From Candidatus Parcubacteria bacterium (lineage in GTDB: Bacteria > Patescibacteriota > Minisyncoccia > Phycocordibacterales > CAIJYI01), in NCBI GenBank assembly GCA_026395595.1, contig JAPLYL010000002.1, positions 122,111-186,110 of the forward strand: DNA of 64,000 nt. Reading direction: 5' to 3'. Below are positions 8,720 to 54,141 of this stretch, one piece after another. A model generated the notes under the pieces. It had not been told where the DNA came from. It made no database searches and saw nothing but the letters and a program-made list of their open reading frames with translations. The translations under genes were made by a program, and so were the position numbers. How positions within the stretch are numbered: the stretch's first letter is position 1; each line of letters starts with the position of its first letter.

Positions 8720-9358
8720 TCAGTTCTTCTTCTCCCTATACCCCAACGCTTCAGCAAGATGTTTTTCCTGAATATCTTCACTTCCCGCAAGGTCGGCGAT
8801 GGTTCGTGCGAGTTTGATGATACGGTGATAAGCACGCGGTGAAAGCGATATTCTGGTCGCGGCGGAATTGAGGAGATTTTTCTCTTTTTCGCCAAGTGGT
8901 GCAAATTTTTCCAAATCTTTTGCGCTCATTTCGGAGTTGGTATTTATCTTTTTGTCGGCAAACCTTTTTTCTTGAATTTCTCTTGCTTTTAGTACTCTGT
9001 CGCGAATATCTTTAGAGGTTTCCATTCCTTCCGGCACTTTGTCAGAGAGTTTTTTGTAGTCGATTTCGGCGACTGGTAGGAAAATATCTATTCGATCCAT
9101 AATCGGACCAGAAAGTTTACGTTCATATTTGTAAATATCTCCTGCCGAACAAACGCACTCTTTTTTAGTACCTTTAAACCCGCACGGACACGGATTCATC
9201 GCGGCAACCAAAATGAAATTCGCTGGAAAAACTTCCGTCCCCTTCGCTCTTGAAATGCTCACAAATTTTTCTTCCAGCGGTTCGCGCAAGCTCTCTAAAA
9301 CTCGTTTTTCAAACTCAGGGAATTCGTCTAAGGTATATGTCCTACAAAAAACATTCAT
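8720..9358 (-). pseudogene. 3' fragment (C-terminal ~205 aa) of a comM/yifB paralogue
   Basis: The translation is ~90% identical to residues ~130-338 of the 9869..10885 ORF (DEFPEFEKRVLESLREPLEEKFVSISRAKGTEV...LAEALGYREKKN); nucleotide identity is ~85%; it has no N-terminal ATPase part. Confidence 0.7.
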
Positions 9359-9868: not shown

Positions 9869-11444
9869 TCAGTTCTTCTTCTCCCTATACCCCAACGCTT
9901 CGGCGAGATGTTTATCTTGTATGTTTTCACTTCCTGCCAAGTCGGCGATGGTTCGCGCAAGTTTTATAATCCGATGATACGCGCGCGGTGAAAGACCCAT
10001 GCGGGTTGCGGCGGAATTGAGGAGGTTTTTTTCTTTTTCTCCGAGCGGAGCGAATTTTTCCAAGTCTTTCGCGCTCATTTCGGAATTGGTATTTATACGT
10101 TTGCCTTCAAATCGTTTCGTTTGTGTTTCGCGAGCTTTTAAAACACGGTCGCGAATATTTTTTGAAGTATCGGTTCCCTCCGGCGCTTTGTCGGAAAGTT
10201 TTTTGTAATCAATTTCGGCGACGGGCAAAAAGATATCAATGCGATCCATAATTGGGCCGGAAAGTTTGCGTTCATATTTGTATATGTCGCCGGCCGAGCA
10301 GACGCACTCCTTTTTAGTACCCTTAAATCCGCACGGACAGGGATTCATCGCGGCGACCAAGATGAAATTCGCCGGAAACACTTCTGTCCCCTTCGCGCGA
10401 CTGATTGAAACAAATTTTTCTTCAAGCGGTTCTCGCAAGCTTTCCAAAACTCGTTTTTCAAATTCGGGAAACTCATCTAAAAACAAGACTCCGCGATGTG
10501 CGAGGGTTACTTCGCCCGGTTTTGGAAAAGCTCCGCCTCCGATCAGTGAAACATATGAAGAAGTATGATGCGGAGCGCGAAATGGGGCGGTGGTGACAAG
10601 CGGTTCTTTAAGTGTGCCGGAAATAGAGTGAATCCCCGTTATCTCCAGAGCTTCTTCAAAAGAAAGTTCTGGCAGTAATTGCGAAAAAGCGCGCGCCAGC
10701 ATAGTTTTCCCTGTACCGGGCGGGCCGAACATAAGAACATTATGCTTTCCTGTTGCGGCGATTTCCAAACCTCGTTTTGCGGTTTCTTGCCCCCCGTACG
10801 TCTTCAAAGCCGTATTCACGCAGTGTTTCTCTTTTTTCAACTCTTCCCGGAACATGAGGCGGAATAGCCTTCGAAGCTGTTTCATCTTCAGATGTCATAG
10901 TATTCAGGTGTCTAATGACCTGTAAAAGCGTTTTACATCCAAAAACCGTAATACCCTCAATGATTGAGGCTTCATCTGCATTCTCATATGGCAGAAAAAC
11001 TTCGGTAAAACCTTTTTCTTTTGCTTTTTGAACCAGAGGAAGCGCCCCTTTAATAGGACGCAGTTCCCCGTTTAATCCGAGTTCTCCCAAGAAAAGTTTT
11101 TCTTTGGTATCAAACTTTATTTCTCCGCCGGCTAACAAGTATGTTAATGCGCACGCGAGATCAAAAAGAGTCCCCTCTTTTTTTATATTTGCCGGAGTGA
11201 GAGAAATTATTATTTTCTGATTTTTTGCTTTCGGTGATTTATACCCGGAATTCTTTATTGCTGCGGAAATGCGGTCTTTTGATTCATCAACGGATTTGTC
11301 GGGAAGTCCTACGACGGAAAAAGAGGCCATTCCTTTAGAAATATCCACTTCCACACAGACAATATGAGCGCGCAGTCCGACAGATTGAGCGCTATAACTT
11401 TTTGCGAAACCCATGATACATAAGAAATAAGCAAAAAGAAACAA
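9869..11444 (-). CDS. comM: Mg-chelatase-like AAA+ ATPase ComM/YifB, interrupted by a 1-nt frameshift in a G6/C6 tract (~10791-10796)
   Basis: The 10740..11444 ORF gives the Lon-like N-terminal domain; the 9869..10885 ORF gives Walker A GPPGTGKT and the C-terminal Mg-chelatase domain; the frames join as ...GFEDVRG|QETAKRGLEIAATG, the expected YifB junction. Confidence 0.8.
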
Positions 11445-20127: not shown

Positions 20128-20267
20128 CTGAATCCAAAAACTCCTTTTTCCCATCCAAATAACCCCTCCCGTCATGCCGGGCTTGACCCGGCATCCACGT
20201 AGTTAAGCGGTATTTCATAGATCCCGGGTCAAGACCGGGATGACGACTGAGAGTTTTTGGATTCAAG
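20128..20267. mobile_element. MITE/REPIN-like element, copy 1 (terminal inverted repeat TGAATCCAAAAACTC plus two inverted core hairpin units)
   Basis: Left end CTGAATCCAAAAACTCC; core units CGTCATGCCGGGCTTGACCCGGCATCCACG and ATCCCGGGTCAAGACCGGGATGACGA; right end GAGTTTTTGGATTCAAG; the ORF track's 20066..20266 ORF lying over it is spurious. Confidence 0.6.
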
Positions 20268-21262: not shown

Positions 21263-21513
21263 CTGTGAATCCAAAAACTCTTCGTTCGTCATCCTCGCGA
21301 ATGCGGGGATCCACGTCGTTAAGTCATACTCTGGAGCACCACAAGAGTATTTCCATTTTTATAGTCGCTTCGCTCCTTATACTACAAGAGTATTTCCATT
21401 TTTATAGTCGCTTCGCTCCTTAAAAATTAGGTCAAAATTAGGTCGCCCCGTATTCGCGAGGATGACGATTTTGGGATATTTTAGTCCAAGGAAACGAGTT
21501 TTTGGATTCACAG
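21263..21513. mobile_element. MITE/REPIN-like element, copy 2 (with an internal 2 x 39-bp tandem repeat)
   Basis: Ends are CTGTGAATCCAAAAACTC / GAGTTTTTGGATTCACAG; cores CGTCATCCTCGCGAATGCGGGGATCCACG and its inverted partner; the direct repeat ACAAGAGTATTTCCATTTTTATAGTCGCTTCGCTCCTTA occurs twice (21332-21413). Confidence 0.6.
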
Positions 21514-33101: not shown

Positions 33102-33429
33102 CACAAAAAATCATCCGCTTCTGCGGATTTTTTGTGCCCGGGAAGGGAGTGCCCTGCGGCACTCGCGGGAGGATTTGAAGATGTTGAACTTGTCGCAACG
33201 AGTCGAGGCCGGTGAGGAATGGGCTGGGCCCCGTTCCGCAAGACCTTTTGAGAATTTTTGTGAGCGGTGAGCGCGACCTAAATTTTTACGACCATGGGGG
33301 AGATAAAAATGGAAGTACTCTTGCGGTGAAACAAAAAGTCCAAAAGGTGTACTGCGCCAGTAGGGCGAAGTGAGACGTGAAACATGTACCGTTCCTGTAA
33401 GGAAAAAGTCCTCTCCCGGGCACAAAAAA
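33102..33429. repeat. GC-rich ~300-bp non-coding insert bounded by 23-nt direct repeats of the tRNA-Leu 3' end
   Basis: AGTCCTCTCCCGGGCACAAAAAA at 33079-33101 and again at 33407-33429, each followed by a terminator hairpin; the insert begins with GCCCGGG, the tRNA 5' acceptor sequence. Confidence 0.5.
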
Positions 33430-42008: not shown

Positions 42009-42043
42009 ACTGCAAACAAAAACATCTCAATGTTGGGATGGTT

Positions 42044-42172
42044 TTTTTATATCTTGAATCCGAGGACTCCATTTCTCTATTCAAAAACCCTATTCGTCAT
42101 CCCGTGTCGCGACACGGGATCCATGTAATGAGTGCTAACGACGTGGATACCGGGTCAAGCCCGGTATGACGA
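42044..42172. repeat. degenerate MITE copy (partial left terminal repeat plus two core hairpin units)
   Basis: CTTGAATCCGAGG...; TCGTCATCCCGTGTCGCGACACGGGATCCATG and CGACGTGGATACCGGGTCAAGCCCGGTATGACGA. Confidence 0.5.
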
Positions 42173-43504: not shown

Positions 43505-45505
43505 TTATAAGAATTTAACGAGAAGCAAAGCAACAATGTTGATGATTTTTATCATCGGATTGATAGCAGGCCCGGCGGTATCTTTGTAAGGATCCCCGAC
43601 GGTATCTCCCGTAACGGCGGCCTTGTGCGCTTCAGAACCTTTGCCACCGAAGTTTCCCTCTTCAATGTATTTCTTGGAGTTATCCCAAGCGGCACCTCCT
43701 GTCGTCATGGAAATTCCGACGAAGAGTCCGGTAATGATAGCTCCGACGAGTAATCCGGCGAGAGAGGCAGCTCCGAGGAAATATCCGACGAGAATAGGAA
43801 CGATCACGGGAATCAACGCGGGCACGATCATTTCTTTGATGGCCGCTTTGGTAACGATGTCAACGCATTTTGAGTATTCCGGTTTTGCGGTTCCCTGCAT
43901 AATGCCTTTGATTTCGTGGAATTGTCGGCGAACTTCTTCAACGACGGCTTTCGCAGCGTTTCCGACGGCTGACATGGCGATGCTTGCGAAGAGATAAGGC
44001 AAAAGTCCTCCGATTAAAAGACCGACGAGCACTTTCGGGTCTGAAAGATCAAAAACTGATGAAATACCCCTTTCTCTCAAGGCTTCGGTGTAGGCGGCGA
44101 ACAAAACCATGGCGGCAAGTCCGGCGGAAGCGATAGCGTATCCTTTTGTAACGGCTTTGGTGGTGTTTCCAACCGCATCAAGCGCGTCAGTAACATGACG
44201 GACGGATTTGTCCAAACCTGACATTTCTGCGATTCCTCCGGCATTGTCGGTGATTGGGCCGAAAGCGTCAATGGCGACGACGATACCTGTAAGGGAGAGC
44301 ATGCTCATGACGGCGAGAGCAATACCGTAGAGACCGGCGAGGTTGAAAGCAACCAATATAGCGACGACGATAACGAGAATCGGCATAGCGGTTGACTGCA
44401 TTCCTACCGCTAAACCTTTAATGATATTGGTTCCGTGTCCGGTAGTGCTGGCTTCAGCAATGCTTTTGACTGGAGAGTAATTGCTGGCGGTATAGTATTC
44501 AGTGATTAAAACGACGGCTCCCGTAACGACGAGTCCGATAAGGGAAGCGAAGTACAGATTCATAACGGAGTAAATTCCGTTGCCGGTCATAAGGATAGTG
44601 GTAACCGGATAGAAAGCGGCTGCGGACAAAACACCGGTAACGATCAAACTTTTGTAAAGCGCGCCCATGATGTTCTGAGATTTTCCGAGTTTTGCGAACC
44701 ACGTACCGATGATGGTGGTAAAAATAGAAACGGCTCCAATCGCGAGAGGATAGACGATAGCATTTCCGAAATTCGCGAAGACCGCTCCGCCGAGCAAAAT
44801 GATGGCGATAGCTGAGACGGCATACGTTTCAAAGAGGTCAGCAGCCATTCCGGCACAATCTCCGACATTATCCCCGACATTATCGGCAATAACTCCAGGA
44901 TTACGAGGATCATCTTCCGGAATTCCGGCTTCAATTTTTCCGACCATGTCGGTGCCGACGTCTGCTCCTTTGGTGAAAATACCTCCTCCGAGACGGGCAA
45001 AAACGGAAATGAGAGAAGCGCCGAAACCGAGACCGATAAGAGCATTAACATCTTTAGTGACGAAATAGAAACCGGCAACAGAGAGAAGTCCGAGACCGAC
45101 GACAAAAAGTCCGGTAACCGTACCTCCTTCAAAAGCGAGGGTTAAAGCGGGTCCCATACCCTTTTTTGCCGCTTCTGCGGTGCGAACATTCGCGCGAACG
45201 GAAACATTCATGCCGATAAAACCGGCAAGAGCGGAAAATACTGCGCCGACAATGAAGGCGAAGACCGTATTATTGGAAAATCCGGTGGCAACCATGATGG
45301 CGACCACCACAAGGGCGACCATTCCGACGGTCTGGTACTGGCGGGAAAGGTAAGCCGAGGCTCCTTCCTGAATAGCCGAAGCGATTTCCTGCATTTTGGA
45401 ATTTCCTGCAGGTTGCTTCATAATCTTGTAAATAAGGAACGCTCCGTAAACGAGAGCGACAACACCCGAAATAAGGGCATATATCAAAATTTGATTCTCC
45501 GACAT
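43505..45505 (-). CDS. hppA: membrane-bound H+/Na+-translocating pyrophosphatase
   Basis: GDNVGDCAG, the DxxGNTTKA-like block ([20 protein letters not shown]) and 14-16 predicted TM segments; 666 aa. Confidence 0.9.
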
Positions 45506-45720
45506 ACGTTAAATTAAATTTACTATTAGTAATTGAATAATTTTCAAACTATACTATGTTTCAGCGAAAAAAACAAGGAAGAACGCGGTATCTCATCACG
45601 CACTTGTCGCCCGACGGGGTCAGAGACCCGGTCCGGCGTAGGAGATATAAAACGTGCAAACATCCGAGTTTTTGATATTATGATTTTATGCTCTGCTTAT
45701 AAAAGAGGATGGTTAAAGAA

Positions 45721-45860
45721 CTTGAATCCGAAAACCCACTATCGTCATACCGGACTTGATCCGGTATCCACGTCGTTAATGCGCATTACATGGATCCCGT
45801 GTCTCGGCACGGGACGACGAACGGGTTTTTACGCAAAAAAATGGGGTTTTTGGATTCAGG
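45721..45860. mobile_element. MITE/REPIN-like element, copy 3
   Basis: CTTGAATCCGAAAACCCAC ... CGTCATACCGGACTTGATCCGGTATCCACG ... ATCCCGTGTCTCGGCACGGGACGACGA ... GGGGTTTTTGGATTCAGG; the ORF track's 45533..45871 ORF is spurious. Confidence 0.6.
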
Positions 45861-45880
45861 TTAAAGAATAATATACATAT

Positions 45881-46255
45881 ATGAAACAAGAAATAATCAC
45901 ACAACTTCATAAAAATTTTGAGGATTACGCGCAAAAGACCAAAAACGGATTTGAATTTTGGTATGCTCGCGATTTACAGATTTTGCTCGGCTATAATGAA
46001 TGGAGAAATTTTCAAAAAGTCATTGAAAAAGCGAAAATCGCTTGTAAAAATACCGGTTTATCGGTTGATGACCATTTTGTTGACGCCAACAAAATGGTCG
46101 GTGTCGGATCGGGGGCAAAGAGAGAAATAGACGACATTTCTCTCACTCGCCACGCTTGTTACTTCATTGCTCAAAACGGTGACCCGAGAAAAGAAGAAAT
46201 CGCTTTCGCTATGGCATATTTTTCCGTTCAAATGAGAAAACAAGGAAGTCATTGA
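45881..46255 (+). CDS. DinD/Bro-N-like protein, N-terminal fragment (probably truncated)
   Basis: FEFWYARDLQILLGYNEWRNFQKVIEKAKIACKNTGLSVDDHFVDANKMVGVGSGAKREIDDISLTRHACYFIAQNGDPRKEEIAFAMAYF resembles E. coli DinD, but the ORF stops at 124 aa and similarity continues in another frame. Confidence 0.55.
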   Translation: MKQEIITQLHKNFEDYAQKTKNGFEFWYARDLQILLGYNEWRNFQKVIEKAKIACKNTGLSVDDHFVDANKMVGVGSGAKREIDDISLTRHACYFIAQNGDPRKEEIAFAMAYFSVQMRKQGSH

Positions 46256-46416
46256 AAAAAGAATTGCAGAAAGGGTCTATTCTGGCTACAATTTTCGTGT
46301 TTGAGGCACTGGTAGGACGTCCCACATTTAGATTTTAAAGAATTTGCAAAAAATTTGCAAGTTTTTTTCTTTTGTGTATAATAAAGATACTTTAGACATA
46401 AGTTTAAGCAAAATAT

Positions 46417-47670
46417 ATGCAAATTTCACTTATAGAATTTTCAGTAGAAAACTTCAGCGTTTTTAAAGAAAAGGCAACACTTTCTATGGTGGCGCGGAAA
46501 AATGATAACCATACATTTGAATCAAATGGTGAAAACCTACTGAAAACCTCTTTTATTTATGGTCCGAATGCCTCAGGAAAAACCTCTCTTTTGGACGCTT
46601 TTGTGAATTTGAAAACGGGAATTTTGTTTTCTTCCAATATGAAAGAAAATTCAGAGTTGCCCTATAATCCGTTTTTGGCATCGGAAAACACCAAAACAAA
46701 GCCAGTTTGGTTTGAGTTGGTTTTTTCTGCACTTGGGGATCATGCCGGAATATATAGATATTCCTTCTCTTTCTTGCCGGATCATATTGTTACGGAGAAT
46801 TTTACTAAAATATCTATAACTGGGGTAGAGGAACAACTTATTTCGCGAACGGGGCAAGATATAATACTTTCGGGTTGGGGAGATGACGTACAAATTTTGC
46901 GTGACAAAGCGCGTAAGGAAACACTTTTCTTGTCTGTTGCGGCACAATTCAATAATAAACTTGCCCTAAGTTTTGTGGAGGCGTTAAAAAATGTGAATAT
47001 CATTTCAGGCGTTACTTATGCAACCTATCAGCAATTCACTATAAAAAAATTCAAAGATGATCCGCTATACAAAGAAAGTATTTTAAAATACTTAAAAACT
47101 GCCGACTTTTGTATTTCCGGCGGTCGAACAAAAGAAATTGACATTCCATCTTTAGAAAACGTTAAAGATGAGCCAGATATGTTTTCTGCGGTTAAACGAA
47201 TGATAAAACACACCGCTTTGTTTTTCGAGCATCCTGTGTTTGGTAAAAACAACGAACCGGTCGGTGTGTTCGAGCTGTCTCTTGAAGAAGAGTCAACCGG
47301 TACACAAAATTTTCTTTCTATGCTTGGACCAATCATTAACACTCTTGAAACAGGTAAAGTTCTTGCCATAGACGAATTTGATAACAGCTTGCATCCGCTT
47401 TTGACAAAATTTATTGTCGATCTTTTTGAATCATCTGAGACAAATAAACACAACGCTCAACTTGTCGTAACGACACACGACACAAGTTTACTTTCGTATC
47501 GCGATGATTTTATCAAAGATCAATTTTGGTTTACCGATAAAGATGAATTTGGTTCAGCTCGGCTGTTTTCTCTTGCTGAATTTGATATAAGAAATGATAC
47601 TGAATTTGCGAAAAAATATCTGGAAGGTCGATTTGGCGCTCTGCCGTTTATCGGTTCCGTAAAAAAGTAA
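46417..47670 (+). CDS. AAA_21/ABC-type ATPase (OLD / AbiLi / AriA-like)
   Basis: Walker A GPNASGKTS near the N-terminus, Walker B/D-loop LAIDEFDNSLHP, and H-loop VVTTHD. Confidence 0.75.
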   Translation: MQISLIEFSVENFSVFKEKATLSMVARKNDNHTFESNGENLLKTSFIYGPNASGKTSLLDAFVNLKTGILFSSNMKENSELPYNPFLASENTKTKPVWFELVFSALGDHAGIYRYSFSFLPDHIVTENFTKISITGVEEQLISRTGQDIILSGWGDDVQILRDKARKETLFLSVAAQFNNKLALSFVEALKNVNIISGVTYATYQQFTIKKFKDDPLYKESILKYLKTADFCISGGRTKEIDIPSLENVKDEPDMFSAVKRMIKHTALFFEHPVFGKNNEPVGVFELSLEEESTGTQNFLSMLGPIINTLETGKVLAIDEFDNSLHPLLTKFIVDLFESSETNKHNAQLVVTTHDTSLLSYRDDFIKDQFWFTDKDEFGSARLFSLAEFDIRNDTEFAKKYLEGRFGALPFIGSVKK

Positions 47671-47674
47671 AGGA

Positions 47675-48298
47675 ATGTCTGTTTTTCAACGCAAACGCGA
47701 TACCCGTAAGATTCGCAAAGTAATTCGGATATACACGGAAGGTACAAAAACGGAGCCGAATTATTTCGGCTCGATAAAAGATGAATTGCGAATATCTGAA
47801 ATAGATATTCAAATTCAAGGGGTGCGAGGATTTAACAATCATACTTTACCGCTCGTTGGGTCGGTGATTGAAAGAAAAAAAGAGGAAGAAAAAAATAACG
47901 ATTTTGAAACGGAATGGTGGGTTGTTTTTGATAAAGATGATTTTCCTGATTTTAATAGTGCTATTGATTTGGCACAAAAACACGGCATTAACGTTGTCTA
48001 TTCCAACGAGTGTTTTGAATTATGGTTTATTCTCCATTTTGAGTTTTTGCAGACTTCTCTCGGAAGGAATAATTTTGAACCAAAGTTATCAAAGTTGCTC
48101 GGCAGAAAATATGAAAAGAAGAGTTCGGATATTTACGATCTGATAAAAGATAAAGAATCCAACGCGATTCGTTACGCAAAAAAGCTGGAAAAAATGCATG
48201 ATGATGAAAAAGTGAGTTCTCCGGAACAAAGAGTTCCATCAACTTTAGTCTATAAACTGGTCGAAAGATTACGATCACTAAAAACCGAAAGAGAATAG
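47675..48298 (+). CDS. RloB-like (Toprim-like) protein
   Basis: N-terminal IYTEGTKTEPNYF matches the RloB signature (CEGxTExxYF); starts 5 nt after the ATPase stop. Confidence 0.7.
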   Translation: MSVFQRKRDTRKIRKVIRIYTEGTKTEPNYFGSIKDELRISEIDIQIQGVRGFNNHTLPLVGSVIERKKEEEKNNDFETEWWVVFDKDDFPDFNSAIDLAQKHGINVVYSNECFELWFILHFEFLQTSLGRNNFEPKLSKLLGRKYEKKSSDIYDLIKDKESNAIRYAKKLEKMHDDEKVSSPEQRVPSTLVYKLVERLRSLKTERE

Positions 48299-48302
48299 TT
48301 TT

Positions 48303-48887
48303 ATGACCGCCAAAACCACAAATCGCCATATTAAAATTGTTAATAAAGCAAAGCAAAAAATCAAAGAACTTCTTGAAGATCCGAATTGTGTTTGGAGAAC
48401 CATGAGAATACTTAAGGGGCACACAACGGGATTATCCGAACAAGAAATCCTTGATATTTTGTCGAATCTTGGAGCAACGAGTTCTGTCGGAGAAAAAGGT
48501 GAAAAAATATGGAAGTTACATTCCCGTGGCGATAATGATACCCACAAACAAAAAAAGCAATCTCGAAATAAAATTATTTCTCACTCTGACTATTGGAAAA
48601 ATATTTGGTCCCAATGTTCCAAAATTAAATTCAGATACGTTATAATTTCCATGTTGTTAGTTTCTGCATATCTGGGTTACATAAAATTTTCTCCCGAGGT
48701 AAGCACTCCTCTTGGTAAATTTGCATTTAACACAAGCGAATCAAATAAAGTTCTTAGTTCGTCGGTTTTATCTGCTGATATAAACCCAAAAAAATGGACG
48801 TTTCTGTTTTTGGGTTGGTCTCAAGTATTGATTACCGTAAACCCTTATTCAATGTTCAAAAGAAATGGGAAGGATACAAAGGATTAA
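48303..48887 (+). CDS. hypothetical protein, predicted wHTH N-terminus plus one TM
   Basis: Starts 5 nt after the RloB stop; TM segment FRYVIISMLLVSAYLGYIKF. Confidence 0.45.
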   Translation: MTAKTTNRHIKIVNKAKQKIKELLEDPNCVWRTMRILKGHTTGLSEQEILDILSNLGATSSVGEKGEKIWKLHSRGDNDTHKQKKQSRNKIISHSDYWKNIWSQCSKIKFRYVIISMLLVSAYLGYIKFSPEVSTPLGKFAFNTSESNKVLSSSVLSADINPKKWTFLFLGWSQVLITVNPYSMFKRNGKDTKD

Positions 48888-49147
48888 ATACAACAAAAGA
48901 ACAAGCTATACTCTTTAATTCTGGAGATACTGGGTCAGGAAAAATTTGGGCAGATTTGGAAAGTACGCATCTGTATGACGGAAAAAATGTTAAAATCACG
49001 TGCGTTTTTGGAGGAGAATGGGCTCAAAGAATTGAAGTCCTTGGAGAAAAAGAACATGGAACCCGCGAATTAACTTTTTCGGGAATCATTAATGGTGATT
49101 TGTCACAAGGAAATCTCCCCGTGTTAGAAGATTGTAAGTTGTATTAA
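48794..49147 (+). CDS. hypothetical protein (overlaps the previous ORF by 94 nt in the +2 frame)
   Basis: Its ATG follows an A7 run directly; the translation is plausible and beta-rich; the start is uncertain. Confidence 0.35.
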   Translation: MDVSVFGLVSSIDYRKPLFNVQKKWEGYKGLNTTKEQAILFNSGDTGSGKIWADLESTHLYDGKNVKITCVFGGEWAQRIEVLGEKEHGTRELTFSGIINGDLSQGNLPVLEDCKLY

Positions 49148-49156
49148 TCACACAAT

Positions 49157-49384
49157 GTGAGTAAAAGCGGTGAGCATGTTGTCGCGATTCAGTCTAAAAT
49201 CAAAAAAGAAAAAAATTACTGTATGTTGTTCTCGAAATTTTTTGAGGCCAAAAGCTTGAAAAAAATGCTGATCGAGTCGTTCCAGCAGATCCACTCAAAG
49301 ATTATTTGGAATACGTGCGATAGTAGGAAAGAGAGAGTTGACACAAACAAACCCGCCAAACCTTACGGTTTGGGCGGGGGATAA
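49157..49384 (+). CDS. hypothetical small protein
   Basis: 75-aa ORF, the last in this same-strand cluster. Confidence 0.3.
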   Translation: MSKSGEHVVAIQSKIKKEKNYCMLFSKFFEAKSLKKMLIESFQQIHSKIIWNTCDSRKERVDTNKPAKPYGLGGG

Positions 49385-49491
49385 ATACAATCCTAATATC
49401 CCATAGGCGAGGGTAACTTGCATTACGTATACAATACGTATCCGTAGCACCTATTAGTCAAGCTCTTCCGCTGTGGACAAGTGCATAAAAA

Positions 49492-49522
49492 CAACTCCGC
49501 AAAGTTTGCGGAGTTATTTTTT
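49492..49522. terminator. bidirectional terminator
   Basis: AACTCCGCAAA-GTT-TGCGGAGTT followed by TTTTTT. Confidence 0.7.
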
Positions 49523-49529
49523 ATCTTTC

Positions 49530-50873
49530 TTATTCTTCCGTTTTTTCCTCTTTTTTCTTTTTGGTTTTCTTCGGTTCTTCTTTTGCCGTTTCGGCGGAGG
49601 CGGATTCCACTTCTCCTTTCAGTACTTCTTCTACCACCTCTTTTTCCGTGATGACTTCTTCGGTTGGGGTTTCATTTATTGATTCTTCAAATTCTTTCAC
49701 TTCCTTCTCTTCTTCCAGTTCTTTTTCTTCCTCCTCTACTGCTTCTTCCGTTTCTTTGGTGGAATGAATGTCTATTTTCCAGCCGGTCAATTTGGCGGCC
49801 AGTCTCGCGTTTTGACCTCCTTTTCCGATAGCGAGGGAAAGCTGGTCTTCGGCGACGATGACTGAGGCACGCTTTTCTTCGGGGCGGAGTTCTACGGAGA
49901 GGATTTTGGCGGGAGCGAGAGAATCGGAGATGAATTTCTTTGCATCTTCCGACCATTCTATAATATCTATCTTTTCTCCTCCGAGTTCGCTCATGACGGT
50001 GGTTACTCGGACGCCTCTTTGTCCGACACAGGAACCGATCGGGTCAATGTGCTCATCGTTTGAATACACGGCGATTTTTGCGCGTGAACCCGGTTCGCGG
50101 GCGATATTTTTGATCTCAACGACCCCACTCATGACTTCTGGCGCTTCCATCTTGAAAAATTCTTCAATGAGTTTTGGGTGGGTGCGGGAAAGGCGGAGGT
50201 TTATTCCTCTCGGTGTGTCTTCAACGCGATAAAGAAAGGCTTTGATGCGCTCTCCTTGGCGATATTTTTCACGGGAGATCTGTTCTTCGTAAGGAAGAAT
50301 AGCGGTCGTTTTTCCGAGGTCTACGAAGATATTCCCCTTTTCAATTCTTTGAACCATTCCGTTGACGACTTCTCCTTCTTTTTTGCCGAATTCGTCCATC
50401 GTCGTGCTTTTCTCCGCTTCACGGATTTTCTGAATAATGACCTGTTTTGCGGTTTGTGCGGCAATGCGTCCGAAATCTTCTTTGGTTTCAAGAGGGAAGA
50501 CGAGTTCTTCTTCAACGGCGGCATCGCGTTTGATTTTCTTGGCATCTTCAAGAAGAATATGGTGTTCGCTGTTGAAGCGAGTACGAAGGTCGTTTTCGTC
50601 TTTTTCTTCCTCAATCGGTTCACCATTTTCATCAAGCGGAGCCGGCATTTTAACGATGGATTCGTCAACGATGACCTTTACCTGCGAGAAATCGGTCGCT
50701 CCTGTGTCCAAATCAAATTTGGCGCGGACGATTTGCCCCTTTTTACCGTATTCTTTTTTGTAGGCGGCAGCGAGAGACATTTCTATCGCTTCCAAGATCT
50801 TTTCTTTGGAAATGCCTTTTTCTTCCTCCATTTGCTCAAGTGCCGAGCGGAGCGTTTTAAGATCAAATAACAT
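49530..50873 (-). CDS. nusA: transcription termination/antitermination factor NusA
   Basis: N-terminal domain, then S1 and two KH domains, and an acidic/K-rich C-terminal tail. Confidence 0.9.
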   Translation of the reverse strand: MLFDLKTLRSALEQMEEEKGISKEKILEAIEMSLAAAYKKEYGKKGQIVRAKFDLDTGATDFSQVKVIVDESIVKMPAPLDENGEPIEEEKDENDLRTRFNSEHHILLEDAKKIKRDAAVEEELVFPLETKEDFGRIAAQTAKQVIIQKIREAEKSTTMDEFGKKEGEVVNGMVQRIEKGNIFVDLGKTTAILPYEEQISREKYRQGERIKAFLYRVEDTPRGINLRLSRTHPKLIEEFFKMEAPEVMSGVVEIKNIAREPGSRAKIAVYSNDEHIDPIGSCVGQRGVRVTTVMSELGGEKIDIIEWSEDAKKFISDSLAPAKILSVELRPEEKRASVIVAEDQLSLAIGKGGQNARLAAKLTGWKIDIHSTKETEEAVEEEEKELEEEKEVKEFEESINETPTEEVITEKEVVEEVLKGEVESASAETAKEEPKKTKKKKEEKTEE

Positions 50874-51019: not shown

Positions 51020-51048
51020 TTGACGAATACATGACAGGAAGTATAATA
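51020..51048 (+). promoter_or_regulatory. near-consensus sigma70 promoter TTGACG-17-TATAAT
   Basis: TTGACG at 51020-51025 and TATAAT at 51043-51048; the DnaA-box-like TTATCCACT at 51001-51009 lies just upstream; AGGAGA SD and ATG at 51055. Confidence 0.5.
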
Positions 51049-51054
51049 GGAGAC

Positions 51055-51795
51055 ATGCACCCCATACAACAAAAGATACTCTCTCTGGCGAAGAGTCAAA
51101 ATATCGCCGGGCTTACACTGCGGAAGATTGGCGAACTTATCAGTGAGCCGGACGCTCCGCAAAAGATCAAACACCATATTGATAAACTGAAAGAAAAAGG
51201 ATTATTGCTTTCTGGAGAAGGTGGCAAGCATCTGAAACCCGCTTCTGGTGGAATAGACAAAATGTCCAGTCTTGTATCTCTGCCGATACTCGGCTCTGCG
51301 AACTGCGGGGAAGCAACGATGTATGCCGACGGGGCGATTGAAGGCTATCTGAAAGTATCGCTTCGCATTTTGGGAGAAAAATTCAGAAATAAATTGGATG
51401 ACCTCTTTGTTTTGCGCGCTTCCGGAAATTCCATGAATCGCGCGAATGTTCACGGTAAAACCATTGACGATGGCGATTATGTTATCGCGGAAAGAATTCA
51501 TGAAGCGCCGAAAAGCGGGGAATATATCGTCTCCATTATTGAAGGTTTGGCGAATATCAAAAAATTCCTGATTGATACCAAAAACGAGCATATTATTCTC
51601 GCTCCCGAATCAAGTTTGGATTTTTCACCGATTTATATACATAAAGAAGACTATTCCGGCTATTTTGTTGGTGGCCGAGTAGTAGATGTCATCAAAAAAC
51701 CGGATGAATTCATGGATTCCTCTGCTGGCGATATCCTCAAATACGGCAAACCGATACGAGAGGTAGATTACTCAAGCAAGAAAAAGAAAAAATAA
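51055..51795 (+). CDS. LexA-like repressor (wHTH plus S24 peptidase domain)
   Basis: N-terminal HTH; C-terminal LRASGNSM (catalytic Ser) and ...KK (Lys) S24 motifs; the ORF track's start at 51031 would contain the -10 element. Confidence 0.7.
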   Translation: MHPIQQKILSLAKSQNIAGLTLRKIGELISEPDAPQKIKHHIDKLKEKGLLLSGEGGKHLKPASGGIDKMSSLVSLPILGSANCGEATMYADGAIEGYLKVSLRILGEKFRNKLDDLFVLRASGNSMNRANVHGKTIDDGDYVIAERIHEAPKSGEYIVSIIEGLANIKKFLIDTKNEHIILAPESSLDFSPIYIHKEDYSGYFVGGRVVDVIKKPDEFMDSSAGDILKYGKPIREVDYSSKKKKK

Positions 51796-52895
51796 TGGAA
51801 ACGAACAAGAAAGTTTCTTTAAATAGTAATTTTACGGAATTTTTACTGTATACTACTCCAAACCATAAGGTAAAGGTTGAAATTTTCTTGCGTGATGAAA
51901 ATATCTGGCTGACGCAAAAATTAATTGCACGGCTTTTTGATTGTTCTTCTGATAATGTTTCTTTTCACTTGAAAAACATTTTTGAAAGCGGTGAATTGCT
52001 GGAAAATTCAGTTACCGAGGAATTCTCGGTAACTGCCGGTGATGGTAAAAAGTATAAGACAAAACATTATAATTTAGATGCGATTATTTCGGTAGGGTAT
52101 CGAGTAAATTCCGCCAATGCGACTCAGTTTCGTATCTGGGCGACCGAACGCTTGAAAGAATATATTATCAAGGGGTTTACTATGGACGATGAACGCTTGA
52201 AAAACCCAAATACGATCTTTGGTAAGGATTATTTTGAAGAACAACTGGCAAGAATTAGAAATATCCGATCTAGCGAAAGACGAATGTATCAGAAAGTTAC
52301 CGATATCTATGCTGAATGTAGCGCTGATTATTCTCCAAATAGCGATATAACGAAAGAATTTTTTGCAACAATTCAAAACAAACTTCATTTTGCAATAACC
52401 GGTAAAACTGCCGCGGAAATTATTTATGAAAGAGTAAAAAATGAAAAACCGAATATCGGACTTACTTCGTGGAAAAACTCTCCAAAAGGAAGAATCCGAG
52501 AAACCGATGTTATCATTGCCAAAAATTACTTAAACGAAAAAGAACTTGACCACCTGAATAGAATTGTCACTATGTACCTTGATTTTGCGGAAATGCAAGC
52601 GAAACGAGGCATTCTTATGAGAATGAAAGATTGGACATCAAAACTGGATGCATTTCTGAAGTTTAACGAGCAGGAAATTTTATCCAACGCAGGAAAAATC
52701 AGCCATGAAGTTGCTGAAGCTTTAGCTCTTGAAGAATACGAAAAATACAGGATAGAACAGGATAAAAATTATATTTCTGATTTTGACAGAGAAGTGAAGA
52801 AAATTTTAGATGTAAAGAAAAAACATGCCAAATTTTCGGAAAGTGATAATTTTTTTGATAAAAATGTTGTAAAAGATAAAAATGAAGGAAATTAA
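51795..52895 (+). CDS. RhuM-family (virulence protein RhuM-like) protein
   Basis: HYNLDAIISVGYRVNSANATQFRIWATERLKEY is the RhuM core signature; its start overlaps the LexA-like stop (ATAATGG). Confidence 0.7.
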   Translation: METNKKVSLNSNFTEFLLYTTPNHKVKVEIFLRDENIWLTQKLIARLFDCSSDNVSFHLKNIFESGELLENSVTEEFSVTAGDGKKYKTKHYNLDAIISVGYRVNSANATQFRIWATERLKEYIIKGFTMDDERLKNPNTIFGKDYFEEQLARIRNIRSSERRMYQKVTDIYAECSADYSPNSDITKEFFATIQNKLHFAITGKTAAEIIYERVKNEKPNIGLTSWKNSPKGRIRETDVIIAKNYLNEKELDHLNRIVTMYLDFAEMQAKRGILMRMKDWTSKLDAFLKFNEQEILSNAGKISHEVAEALALEEYEKYRIEQDKNYISDFDREVKKILDVKKKHAKFSESDNFFDKNVVKDKNEGN

Positions 52896-53012
52896 CAAAA
52901 TTAAACAACTTAAAAATGTTATTAAAGATGCAATAGACGAGCGTTTTAATACAGTGATAAGGTAGAAGTTAAACTGGAAGAGATCATAAATAAAGCTGTA
53001 CTTGAATATGAA

Positions 53013-53315
53013 ATGCTTCTTACTGAAGATGTAAAGCAGGTACTTAAAAATAATTATAAAATAGACTTTTATAACCGTGGATATCTTGGTGATAAAATAA
53101 AAATTTACGAAGCCACCGTTGGGAAAAATGAGTTCAGTAAATTATTGTGGAAAATTAATATGATACGTAATGATTTGAGTCACACACGTATTGATAAACT
53201 TTTTTATAAAAAGCAGGATCTATCTCTAAGAGAAACAAAAGAGGTTTTACTTACTGATTTATTTACTCAAATGATAAACCACGGTGAACCATCCTTAAAA
53301 GTGAATTCAAAATAA
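53013..53315 (+). CDS. hypothetical protein
   Basis: 100-aa ORF. Confidence 0.35.
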   Translation: MLLTEDVKQVLKNNYKIDFYNRGYLGDKIKIYEATVGKNEFSKLLWKINMIRNDLSHTRIDKLFYKKQDLSLRETKEVLLTDLFTQMINHGEPSLKVNSK

Positions 53316-53319
53316 TTTT

Positions 53320-54141
53320 ATGCACAACAATTTAAAAAACCTTGCTATTTTTGAAGGGAATCATATTCGCCGGCTGTGGGACGGGGAAAAAGAACTGTGG
53401 TATTTTTCAATTATCGATGTGATTCAAGTTTTAACAGAAAGCCCGAGACCAAGAAAATACTGGAATGCTTTAAAAACAAAGTTAAAAAACGAAGGAAGTC
53501 AGTTGTCCCAGAAAGTGGGACAACTGAAAATGGAATCTCTTGACGGAAAAATGTACCTTACTGATGTGGCGGATACAGAAACGCTTTTACGACTTATCCA
53601 ATCAACGCCTTCTCCAAAAGCTGAGCCATTTAAGCTTTGGTTGGCAAAGGTTGGATATGAAAGAATGAGGGAAATGGGCGATCCGGAAATAGCGCTTAAC
53701 CGAAGCCGTGTCTATTGGAGAGAGCAGGGGAGAAGTGAAAAATGGATTGAACAAAGAATGACAGGACAAGAAACGAGAAATAAACTCACTGATTACTGGA
53801 GCGAGCACAAAGTAAAGAAAGGCGAAGAATTTGCCATATTGACGAACATCATACATCAAGAATGGAGCGACATATCAGTAAAAGAACACAAAGGACTGAA
53901 AGGTTTAAAAACACAAAATCTTCGTGATCATATGAGTGAAGAAGAATTGATTTTTACCGCGCTGGCTGAACTTTCCACAAGAAGAATTGCAGAAACAGAT
54001 AAGGCCGAAGGATTGGAAGAAAACAAAATTCCGGCAAAAAAAGGCGGAAAAATCGCAAAAGACGCGCGCCTCACTTTAGAAGAAAAAACAGGGAGCAGCG
54101 TCATCACTGGTAAAAACTTTTTGTTGCCATCTAAAAAATAA
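53320..54141 (+). CDS. Bro-N/DinD-like domain protein (antirepressor-like)
   Basis: NHIRRLWDGEKELWYFSIIDVIQVLTESPRPRKYW...AEPFKLWLAKVGYE is Bro-N-like; 273 aa. Confidence 0.55.
   Translation: MHNNLKNLAIFEGNHIRRLWDGEKELWYFSIIDVIQVLTESPRPRKYWNALKTKLKNEGSQLSQKVGQLKMESLDGKMYLTDVADTETLLRLIQSTPSPKAEPFKLWLAKVGYERMREMGDPEIALNRSRVYWREQGRSEKWIEQRMTGQETRNKLTDYWSEHKVKKGEEFAILTNIIHQEWSDISVKEHKGLKGLKTQNLRDHMSEEELIFTALAELSTRRIAETDKAEGLEENKIPAKKGGKIAKDARLTLEEKTGSSVITGKNFLLPSKK

Follow-up and report, generated by a model that had tools for sequence, protein, structure and literature searches.

Comparison with Pfam, PADLOC and related genomes identified the locus under study, in the metagenome-assembled genome (MAG) of a Candidatus Parcubacteria bacterium, as an ordinary two-gene candidate anti-phage module of the AbiL/RloAB type. 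The functional unit is likely to be this pair of genes, horizontally acquired into a low-GC accessory block; the gene that follows, ORF3/4, would be unrelated to it and ORF5 would be untranslated (Table 1). The original prediction had made the same core call, an ABC/AAA_21 ATPase with an RloB partner in the AbiL class, and both the Pfam and the PADLOC matches agree with it. It had also proposed an extended or new five-gene variant. That reading is unsupported, because the pair alone is conserved, ORF3 and ORF4 are one broken gene, and ORF5 is weakly coding. The locus is one further AbiL/RloAB-type pair, from the candidate phyla radiation (CPR), and leaves existing knowledge unchanged. In what follows, the window is the whole 64-kb stretch of DNA that was analysed.

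Table 1. Features of the locus and its borders, with positions counted along the window
Feature	Position	Strand	Remarks
Dispersed repeat of ~130 nt, MITE-like or REP-like	45742-45871		Also at 20128-20267 and, inverted and 80% identical, at 42042-42172
Truncated DinD-like (Bro-N / PDC-S13) fragment	45881-46255	+	N-terminal 121 residues only
Sigma-70-like promoter candidate	46354-46382	+	TTGCAA, 16-17 nt spacer, TATAAT; ~35 nt before the ATPase start codon
ATPase gene	46417-47670	+	417 aa; AbiLi/RloA-type ABC ATPase, AAA_21 family; proposed sensor or regulator
RloB/AbiLii gene	47675-48298	+	207 aa; Toprim-like putative nuclease; proposed effector
ORF3+ORF4, one frameshifted gene	48303-49147	+	ORF3 48303-48887; ORF4 48794-49147
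A7 homopolymer run, frameshift site	48788-48794	+	
ORF5	49157-49384	+	75 aa from a GTG start; unlikely to be a gene
GC-rich hairpin inside ORF5	49349-49373	-	11 bp, CCCGCCAAACC/GGTTTGGCGGG; T-tract on the minus strand; resembles a minus-strand terminator
Bidirectional terminator-like hairpin	49493-49515		Common to the plus-strand block and convergent nusA

The ATPase and RloB pair

An ORF check returned the five predicted reading frames at their positions, all on the plus strand. The gaps on either side of the RloB gene had been given as 5 nt, and we measured 4 nt for each (47671-47674 and 48299-48302). HMM searches then placed the first two proteins in the expected families. The ATPase matched Pfam AAA_21 (8.4e-24, 85.6 bits, cut-off 27) and the PADLOC AbiLi model PDLC02335 (3.8e-84, covering residues 3-415). 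Its partner matched Pfam RloB over profile positions 3-195 of 195 (6.6e-42, 144.3 bits, cut-off 31.5) and the PADLOC AbiLii model PDLC02337 (6.9e-27). The locus agrees with the PADLOC definition of AbiL, both models being matched by adjacent genes in the same direction, 4 nt apart. In the NCBI annotation of the MAG, the two products appear as "ATP-binding protein" (MCX6735743.1) and "RloB family protein".

Judged by its motifs, the first protein is an ABC-type, Rad50/SMC-like ATPase of the AAA_21 family. The GPNASGKTS, LAIDEFDN and TTHD motifs that had been claimed for it were all present. In an alignment of 11 homologues (A5), G49-x-NASGK55 (Walker A), the signature-like E292-S-x-G-T296, D319-E320 (Walker B), D322 and H354 were invariant, so that Walker A, signature, Walker B, D-loop and H-loop are all intact. 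In the second protein, the predicted RloB hallmark TEGxTExxYF reads TEGTKTEPNYF, and the acidic residues E22/E27 and D86-x-D88 were conserved across 19 homologues. More than 60 RloB cluster representatives were over 50% identical to it, and all those with an organism name belonged to Patescibacteria. RloB has been related to OLD_TOPRIM by HHpred, and a logic of AAA-neutralised TOPRIM toxins has been described (PMC10440598). Searches of PDB sequences returned no close solved relative of either protein.

Conservation and genomic setting of the pair

Across bacterial phyla, the two genes were almost always adjacent. The ATPase lay directly upstream of RloB, on the same strand, in 77 of the 80 GTDB loci that carry an RloB homologue, and the remaining 3 were cut by contig ends. 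No gene was conserved further downstream: 31 downstream ORFs comprised 29 singletons and one pair. Similarity to ORF3, ORF4 or ORF5 was found in 0/80 GTDB loci and in 0/9 loci of closer relatives. The ATPase and RloB are the whole conserved unit, without a conserved downstream gene. The taxonomic distribution of the pair was patchy, and it was found on 75 plasmids, some of them enterobacterial and of 3.5-3.9 kb, where the annotated features beneath the match were the ATPase and RloB genes themselves. Lactococcus was absent from the best 25 of the 75 plasmid tblastn matches, and it was not one of the ten genera that the tally of these matches names.

In close CPR relatives, at 60-75% identity, the pair stood alone at three loci (L002, L006/7 and L009/10), while at three others (L003, L004/5 and L008) it was enclosed by hsdM and hsdS in a type I restriction-modification (R-M) operon. 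This arrangement could mean that the present pair is a decayed or orphaned R-M accessory in the strict RloAB sense, dependent on Hsd proteins, for instance as an anti-restriction guard, and by itself either non-functional or a toxin-antitoxin addiction module. The 3 of 6 close relatives with an embedded pair favour such an origin, as does the first description of RloB in type I R-M operons (PMC10440598, PMC13064643), and PARIS is known to sense the anti-restriction protein Ocr (PMC11464382). However, tblastn with CPR HsdM, HsdS and HsdR found no hsd genes in the window, and such genes occurred within 7 kb in only 3/80 GTDB loci. Usually the pair stands alone, on small plasmids as well, and the catalytic motifs are all intact here. 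We therefore regard the orphaned-accessory explanation as unlikely.

The surroundings had been described as typical of a defence island. The block has a GC content of 0.363, lower than that of the genes on its two sides, hppA (0.496) and nusA (0.461; 49530-50873, minus strand, the neighbour named in the original prediction), and it is accompanied by other defence-candidate genes, namely the truncated DinD/PDC-S13 fragment, another PDC-S13 gene that is full-length, and a LexA-like protein with RhuM/PDC-S05. The truncation of the DinD neighbour was borne out: NCBIfam PRK11525 was matched at positions 1-121 of 288, and the fragment, which is missing from the NCBI protein set for the MAG, shares 49% identity with residues 5-116 of E. 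coli DinD. No C-terminal part of a DinD-like protein was found nearby. We also considered insertion of a cassette into dinD, and rejected it as the missing C-terminus was not found beyond the cassette.

A housekeeping or repair ABC ATPase of the RecF/SMC/Rad50 kind, working with an accessory nuclease and having no immune role, is barely credible. Weak SMC_N and RecF matches do occur at the Walker A region, but they span just ~20-30 residues and lie far under the family cut-offs, while the best full-length match is AbiLi. The patchy distribution, the plasmid carriage and the low local GC also argue against a housekeeping role.

The downstream reading frames

Three separate small genes had been predicted downstream of the pair. 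As read from the sequence, ORF3 and ORF4 are instead the halves of one gene, encoding a single-pass membrane protein of ~281 aa and frameshifted at the A7 run. One added A at this run restores ...INPKK-MDVSVF..., which fits the family motif K-x-L-D-x-S-V-F, and the codon-usage signal changes frame at the same place. Exhaustive phmmer with the conceptual fusion returned 14 distant homologues, all of them intact and aligned in single stretches that cross the junction, which is also crossed in our alignment of the family (A1) and by single tblastn HSPs on intact ORFs. A Logan contig, assembled independently, has the same sequence at the A7 run; the frameshift may have arisen in assembly, though the two assemblies agree. 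The NCBI "hypothetical proteins" NTZ13_01555 and NTZ13_01560 are the two halves, and their annotation should be corrected to one broken gene.

In the fused protein, the N-terminal region is an orphan, a TM helix lies near residues 111-130, and the C-terminal domain, conserved and rich in beta structure, carries two invariant Cys. Its family is very rare and unannotated; the members cross the membrane once, have hypervariable N-terminal domains and share a conserved C-terminal domain that probably lies outside the cytoplasm. The family comprised 16 cluster representatives among 1.84 billion, the two ORFs of the window included, and was found by exhaustive phmmer alone; word-indexed homology searches with the fusion and the family profile gave almost nothing. 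Scans with the C-terminal domain found none in GTDB genomes or viral contigs and 3 short contigs only in metagenomes. The part shared by the family had no Pfam match. A winged helix-turn-helix had been assigned to the N-terminus of ORF3, and we found no support for it: there was no Pfam match, and the AF2 model of the fusion, all-helical in this region, is of low confidence (pLDDT 66.5) and not decisive. Foldseek with this model gave nothing significant, the best hit being 3f1z at E 0.42. A tRNA_anti-like OB-fold (PF12869) was considered for the C-terminal domain. The protein of the window had no match to it, and the idea was dropped because the Pfam matches in two homologues (P0123 and P0130) concern N-terminal domains, not the shared C-terminal one.

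ORF5 is probably non-coding, untranslated 3' sequence. It had no family match in Pfam, PADLOC or NCBIfam and is absent from the NCBI annotation. Its codon log-odds, 0.06 at the full 75 aa and -0.02 in a 53-aa form, fall short of the lowest value among training genes, 0.149, and its GC3 was 0.53 as compared with ~0.3 in neighbouring genes. The block had been said to end at a terminator. This does not hold for the hairpin inside ORF5, whose T-tract is on the minus strand; the T-tailed terminator-like site of the plus strand is the second hairpin, at 49493-49515. A small RNA between the two minus-strand terminators (49374-49492) was considered and rejected, with no Rfam match and a folding z-score of only -1.8. 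At the other end, the promoter candidate has 10/12 consensus matches and is suggestive only, since such sites were no commoner in our scan of this region than in shuffled sequence.

ORF3/4 is probably co-transcribed with the pair, because it starts 4 nt after the RloB stop. The block could be an extended AbiL variant of five genes, in reality three or four, to which ORF3/4 and ORF5 would add components such as a sensor or effector located in the membrane. The shared strand, the 4-nt gaps and the lack of an obvious internal promoter or terminator are compatible with this, and 2 of 7 loci of the ORF3/4 family have neighbours that resemble restriction endonucleases (matching Eco29kI at 4.6e-56 and, weakly, HNH), a hint of residence in defence islands. 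Yet none of the 7 loci with ORF3/4 homologues that we inspected carried AbiLi or AbiLii similarity, the downstream ORFs were never found together with the pair in its GTDB and close-relative loci, and here ORF3/4 is frameshifted and the coding signal of ORF5 is poor. Lacking co-conservation, the extended variant is largely refuted, and we hold it to be highly improbable. ORF3/4 is outside the conserved AbiL module. Its presence in the same transcription unit would be a matter of chance, the product being a rare, unrelated, membrane-anchored protein. Since some family members adjoin restriction-endonuclease-like genes, and this one AbiL, the family might serve in defence, either alone, as a new gene for defence or superinfection exclusion, or, specifically in the Parcubacteria lineage, as a membrane partner to AbiL; we consider this quite doubtful.

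Proposed mechanism and known systems

PARIS and OLD, characterised systems in which the ABC and Toprim parts are split or fused, suggest a mechanism for the pair: an oligomer of the ATPase would keep the RloB nuclease inactive and would sense infection. A phage cue would then release or activate RloB, which would cleave nucleic acid and so abort the infection.

The fused class 1 proteins of the OLD family, such as P2 Old and GajA of Gabija, a system that acts by DNA nicking, are single polypeptides. Membership of these groups was rejected, as there are two separate ORFs here, with no helicase gene nearby as UvrD-like partner. The solved structures closest to the ATPase by sequence profile were PtuA of Septu and retron-associated PtuA (9n69, 2.5e-6; 8ee4, 2.1e-5), a similarity limited to ~80 residues around the signature and Walker B; the partner of PtuA is the HNH nuclease PtuB, not RloB. 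RloA and RloB, the restriction-linked ORFs, belong to type I R-M loci of Campylobacter jejuni. The present pair resembles them in its RloB Pfam family and upstream ATPase, and its CPR relatives likewise occur between hsdM and hsdS, whereas here the pair stands alone in a window free of hsd genes. Within the CPR clade, the pair alternates between standalone and R-M-embedded positions, and the clade is therefore a reasonable comparative set for PARIS-like guarding of restriction systems by RloAB/AbiL. Whether AbiL/RloAB work in this manner was a question raised in a 2026 review (PMC13064643).

With AbiL of Lactococcus lactis (AbiLi/AbiLii), the system that PADLOC and DefenseFinder model, the pair shares the two-gene operon in which an AAA_21 ABC-type ATPase precedes a Toprim-like protein of the RloB family. 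The difference lies in the host, here a Patescibacteria MAG; CPR hosts are uncultured. AbiL has been grouped with the ABC-plus-TOPRIM systems (PMC11464382) and is also covered in PMC13064643. Membership of PARIS (AriA/AriB) was rejected: the effector is RloB and not DUF4435, with neither a PF14491 nor a PADLOC AriB match, and the AriA models reach the ATPase via the generic AAA_21 region only (7.6e-27 versus 3.8e-84 for AbiLi). In PARIS, the sensor ATPase sequesters a nuclease that, once released, acts as a tRNase, its target being tRNA (PMC11464382, PMC12409363). With its split ABC ATPase and Toprim-type effector, PARIS is the best mechanistic template for the pair described here.

Gene calls and family of the core pair

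The original prediction described an ATPase gene, an RloB gene and three small ORFs (ORF3 to ORF5) on one strand, and proposed them as an extended or new five-gene anti-phage variant. As an observation of the locus it was largely correct. All five ORFs were present where it had placed them, and the motifs GPNASGKTS, LAIDEFDN, TTHD and TEGTKTEPNYF were all found in the translations; the gaps among the first three genes were 4 nt each, rather than the 5 nt claimed. NCBI annotates the ATPase as "ATP-binding protein" (MCX6735743.1), its partner as "RloB family protein", ORF3 as hypothetical protein NTZ13_01555 and, of ORF4, no more than the C-terminal 63 aa (NTZ13_01560); ORF5 and a DinD-like fragment are both absent from that annotation.

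Features of the locus and its surroundings (window positions)
Feature	Position	Strand	Remarks
Dispersed repeat, ~130 nt	45742-45871		copies at 42042-42172 and 20128-20267
DinD-like fragment, N-terminal third	45881-46255		Bro-N 1.1e-9; PRK11525 1-121 of 288; PADLOC PDC-S13 1-121 of 281
ATPase ORF	46417-47670	+	417 aa
RloB ORF	47675-48298	+	207 aa
ORF3	48303-48887	+	194 aa
ORF4	48794-49147	+	117 aa
ORF5	49157-49384	+	75 aa, GTG start
Hairpin at 3' end of ORF5	49349-49373		T-tract on -
Bidirectional terminator	49493-49515		common to nusA
nusA	49530-50873	-	
LexA-like S24 peptidase	51031-51795		stop overlaps RhuM start
RhuM	51795-52895		PADLOC PDC-S05, 1e-147
100-aa ORF	53013-53315		R-N-D-L-S-H, HEPN-like R-x4-H motif; no family match
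Full-length DinD-like PDC-S13 gene	53320-54141		4.6e-121

The AbiL-class identity that had been claimed held up in HMM comparisons. The best PADLOC match of the ATPase was AbiLi (3.8e-84); it matched Pfam AAA_21 at 8.4e-24, and AriA models reached it at 7.6e-27 through the generic AAA_21 region only. The RloB protein matched Pfam RloB end to end (6.6e-42) and PADLOC AbiLii (6.9e-27), and no DUF4435/AriB match was found in it with Pfam or PADLOC models. Across 11 aligned ATPases (32-65% identity), Walker A G49-x-NASGK55, the signature-like ES-x-GT (292-296), Walker B D319-E320, D322 and the H-loop H354 were invariant. The blocks conserved in 19 RloB homologues, EG-x-x-TE(27)-x-x-Y, W82-x-x-F-D86-x-D88 and SN111E112-x-FE115LW-x-x-LH121, are consistent with what would be a Toprim Glu plus DxD arrangement. 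A PDB sequence search with both proteins returned no closely related solved structure; those nearest to the ATPase were Septu and retron PtuA-type ATPases, similar over ~80 residues. The locus is very probably of the two-gene AbiL type, and its core pair is already recognisable by standard tools.

Conservation of the pair and of its neighbours

Close RloB relatives (60-75% identity) were all from Patescibacteria where the organism was named, and in every such context inspected the ATPase lay 4-5 nt upstream of RloB. Some pairs stood alone, with an unrelated gene on their 3' side, namely YchF (L002), a GIY-YIG fragment (L006/7) or DUF2231 (L009). In three other loci (L003, L004/5, L008) the pair lay within a type I R-M operon, with hsdM on one side and hsdS on the other, which is the classical "restriction-linked ORF" arrangement. 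These operons (L003 3001-12207, L004/L005 2979-12627 and L008 2-7155; 62-70% identity) read hsdM, ATPase, RloB, hsdS, one or two unknown genes, hsdR, and in L003 the RloB stop is overlapped by the hsdS start. No hsd genes were found across the window. That this CPR clade alternates between standalone and R-M-embedded positions is a modest addition of the analysis.

Scanning GTDB representative genomes with an RloB pattern gave at least 582 relatives in many phyla, and the 80 best loci were examined. An AbiLi-type ATPase lay directly upstream on the same strand in 77, the remaining 3 being cut by contig ends, and hsd genes occurred within 7 kb in 3. None of the 80 had anything similar to ORF3/4, to ORF5 or to the DinD fragment, which speaks against an extended or new variant. 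RloB was also found on 75 plasmids. Small plasmids with an RloB match (hits H8-H18 and H23; e.g. NZ_CP070130.1, 3681 bp) were of 3.5-3.9 kb and came from E. coli, Salmonella and Klebsiella; the features annotated beneath the match were an ATP-binding protein and an RloB family protein. In the 80 GTDB loci, same-strand ORFs starting within 300 nt 3' of RloB (n=31) were singletons, except for two that formed one pair (29 and two, respectively). ATPase adjacency, variable downstream genes and plasmid carriage therefore indicate that the conserved, mobile unit is the two-gene pair.

Genes downstream and genomic surroundings

ORF3 and ORF4, taken as separate small genes in the original prediction, are the halves of one broken gene. 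They overlap by 94 nt, and one A added to an A7 run (48788-48794) fuses ORF3 residues 1-163 to ORF4 (...INPKK-MDVSVF...) in a protein of 281 aa. Exhaustive phmmer with this fusion against 1.84 billion representatives yielded 16 proteins, that is, the window's own two ORFs and 14 distant homologues (177-370 aa, E-values 8e-28 to 2e-4). Single aligned stretches of these crossed residue 163/164 (e.g. query 89-281, 93-280, 145-279), and tblastn gave single HSPs over the junction, in intact ORFs, at five loci. Codon-usage log-odds were 0.165 for ORF3 residues 1-163 and 0.28 for ORF4 (~0.15 for abiLi and abiLii); the ORF3 tail (residues 164-194) scored -0.05 in its own frame versus +0.15 in that of ORF4. 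The A7 run may be a true mutation, a slippage-prone site or an assembly error. It is supported by two assemblies, which may share reads, positions 44624-49779 being identical in a Logan contig (SRR20698640).

The fused gene falls in a very rare family that is un-modelled, no Pfam model having been found for the part its members share. Its alignment (A1) shows an H-x-x-Y-W motif and a TM helix (...AYLGY...), as well as S-P-E-x-S-x-x-x-G-x-F followed by L-D-x-S-V-F-x-L-V and by a conserved C-terminal domain of ~120 aa with two invariant Cys. Members P0123-P0136 are membrane proteins with a single TM segment, whose N-terminal domains vary greatly, being PF12869 OB-like in some and Gly-rich (GGRGGDGG) in others; PF12869 was rejected as the shared domain, its matches in two members lying in these N-terminal domains. 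The AF2 model of the fusion was weak (pLDDT 66.5), with two helices and five strands predicted C-terminally, and had no significant PDB structure match. In seven homologue loci inspected, all short (L011, L013, L014, L015, L097-L099), no AbiLi/AbiLii similarity was found; in two of the seven the neighbouring gene was restriction-endonuclease-like, an Eco29kI-type endonuclease in one and a weak HNH protein in the other. The corrected gene model and the rare family are likewise modest additions.

ORF5 had no family matches, a GC3 of 0.53 (~0.3 in neighbouring genes) and a codon score below every training gene, and was treated as non-coding. The plus-strand unit most likely ends at the hairpin in ORF5 or at the bidirectional terminator. 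Downstream of nusA, 49349-49515 contains two terminator-like hairpins with minus-strand T-tracts, ~120 nt apart. Their spacer (49374-49492) had no Rfam match and folded only weakly (z -1.8); an unannotated small RNA may lie there, or the hairpins could be just a tandem terminator.

GC was 0.363 in the block 45881-49400 (hppA 0.496, nusA 0.461, whole window 0.405), which fits horizontal acquisition. The predicted truncated DinD gene and flanking nusA were both confirmed. The DinD fragment is 49% identical to E. coli DinD residues 5-116, and no C-terminal remainder was found nearby. Just past its stop (46240-46310), a different frame encodes EVIEKRIAERVYSGYNFRV up to a stop of its own, and may be a candidate frameshifted continuation of the decayed gene. 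Of the proposed MITE, the repeat itself stood, with two further copies; its class is MITE-like or REP-like. Copies share 70-80% identity and are partly palindromic, the 20.1-kb copy matching in both orientations. Across nusA lies a second accessory cluster (51031-54141), whose LexA-like, RhuM and full-length PDC-S13 genes agree with the defence-island-like neighbourhood proposed. Elsewhere, two direct repeats that share a spacing of 1149 nt (300 nt, 81%, 8720-9019 and 9869-10168; 71 nt, 87%, 9261-9331 and 10410-10480) may mark tandem paralogous genes, and 21338-21422 holds two tandem 42-nt copies (98% identity), to which an inverted copy at 33275-33323 is related.

Mode of action and related systems

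The analysis shows that the ATPase and RloB belong to these families, have their motifs intact and form an obligate pair. As to mechanism, we hold with about even confidence that the ATPase would act as a sensor restraining the putative Toprim nuclease (RloB), which infection would release. Ernits et al. 2023 related RloB to OLD_TOPRIM by HHpred and described TOPRIM toxins neutralised by AAA ATPases (PMC10440598), and a 2026 review regards a PARIS-like working of AbiL/RloAB as still undetermined (PMC13064643). In PARIS, AriB is sequestered by an AriA hexamer and, once a phage protein is sensed, released as a tRNase (PMC11464382, PMC12409363); P2 OLD is an abortive tRNase according to a 2026 preprint (10.64898/2026.07.10.737580). 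Burman et al. 2024 place AbiL alongside PARIS, OLD, Gabija and MADS among ABC ATPase plus TOPRIM systems (PMC11464382).
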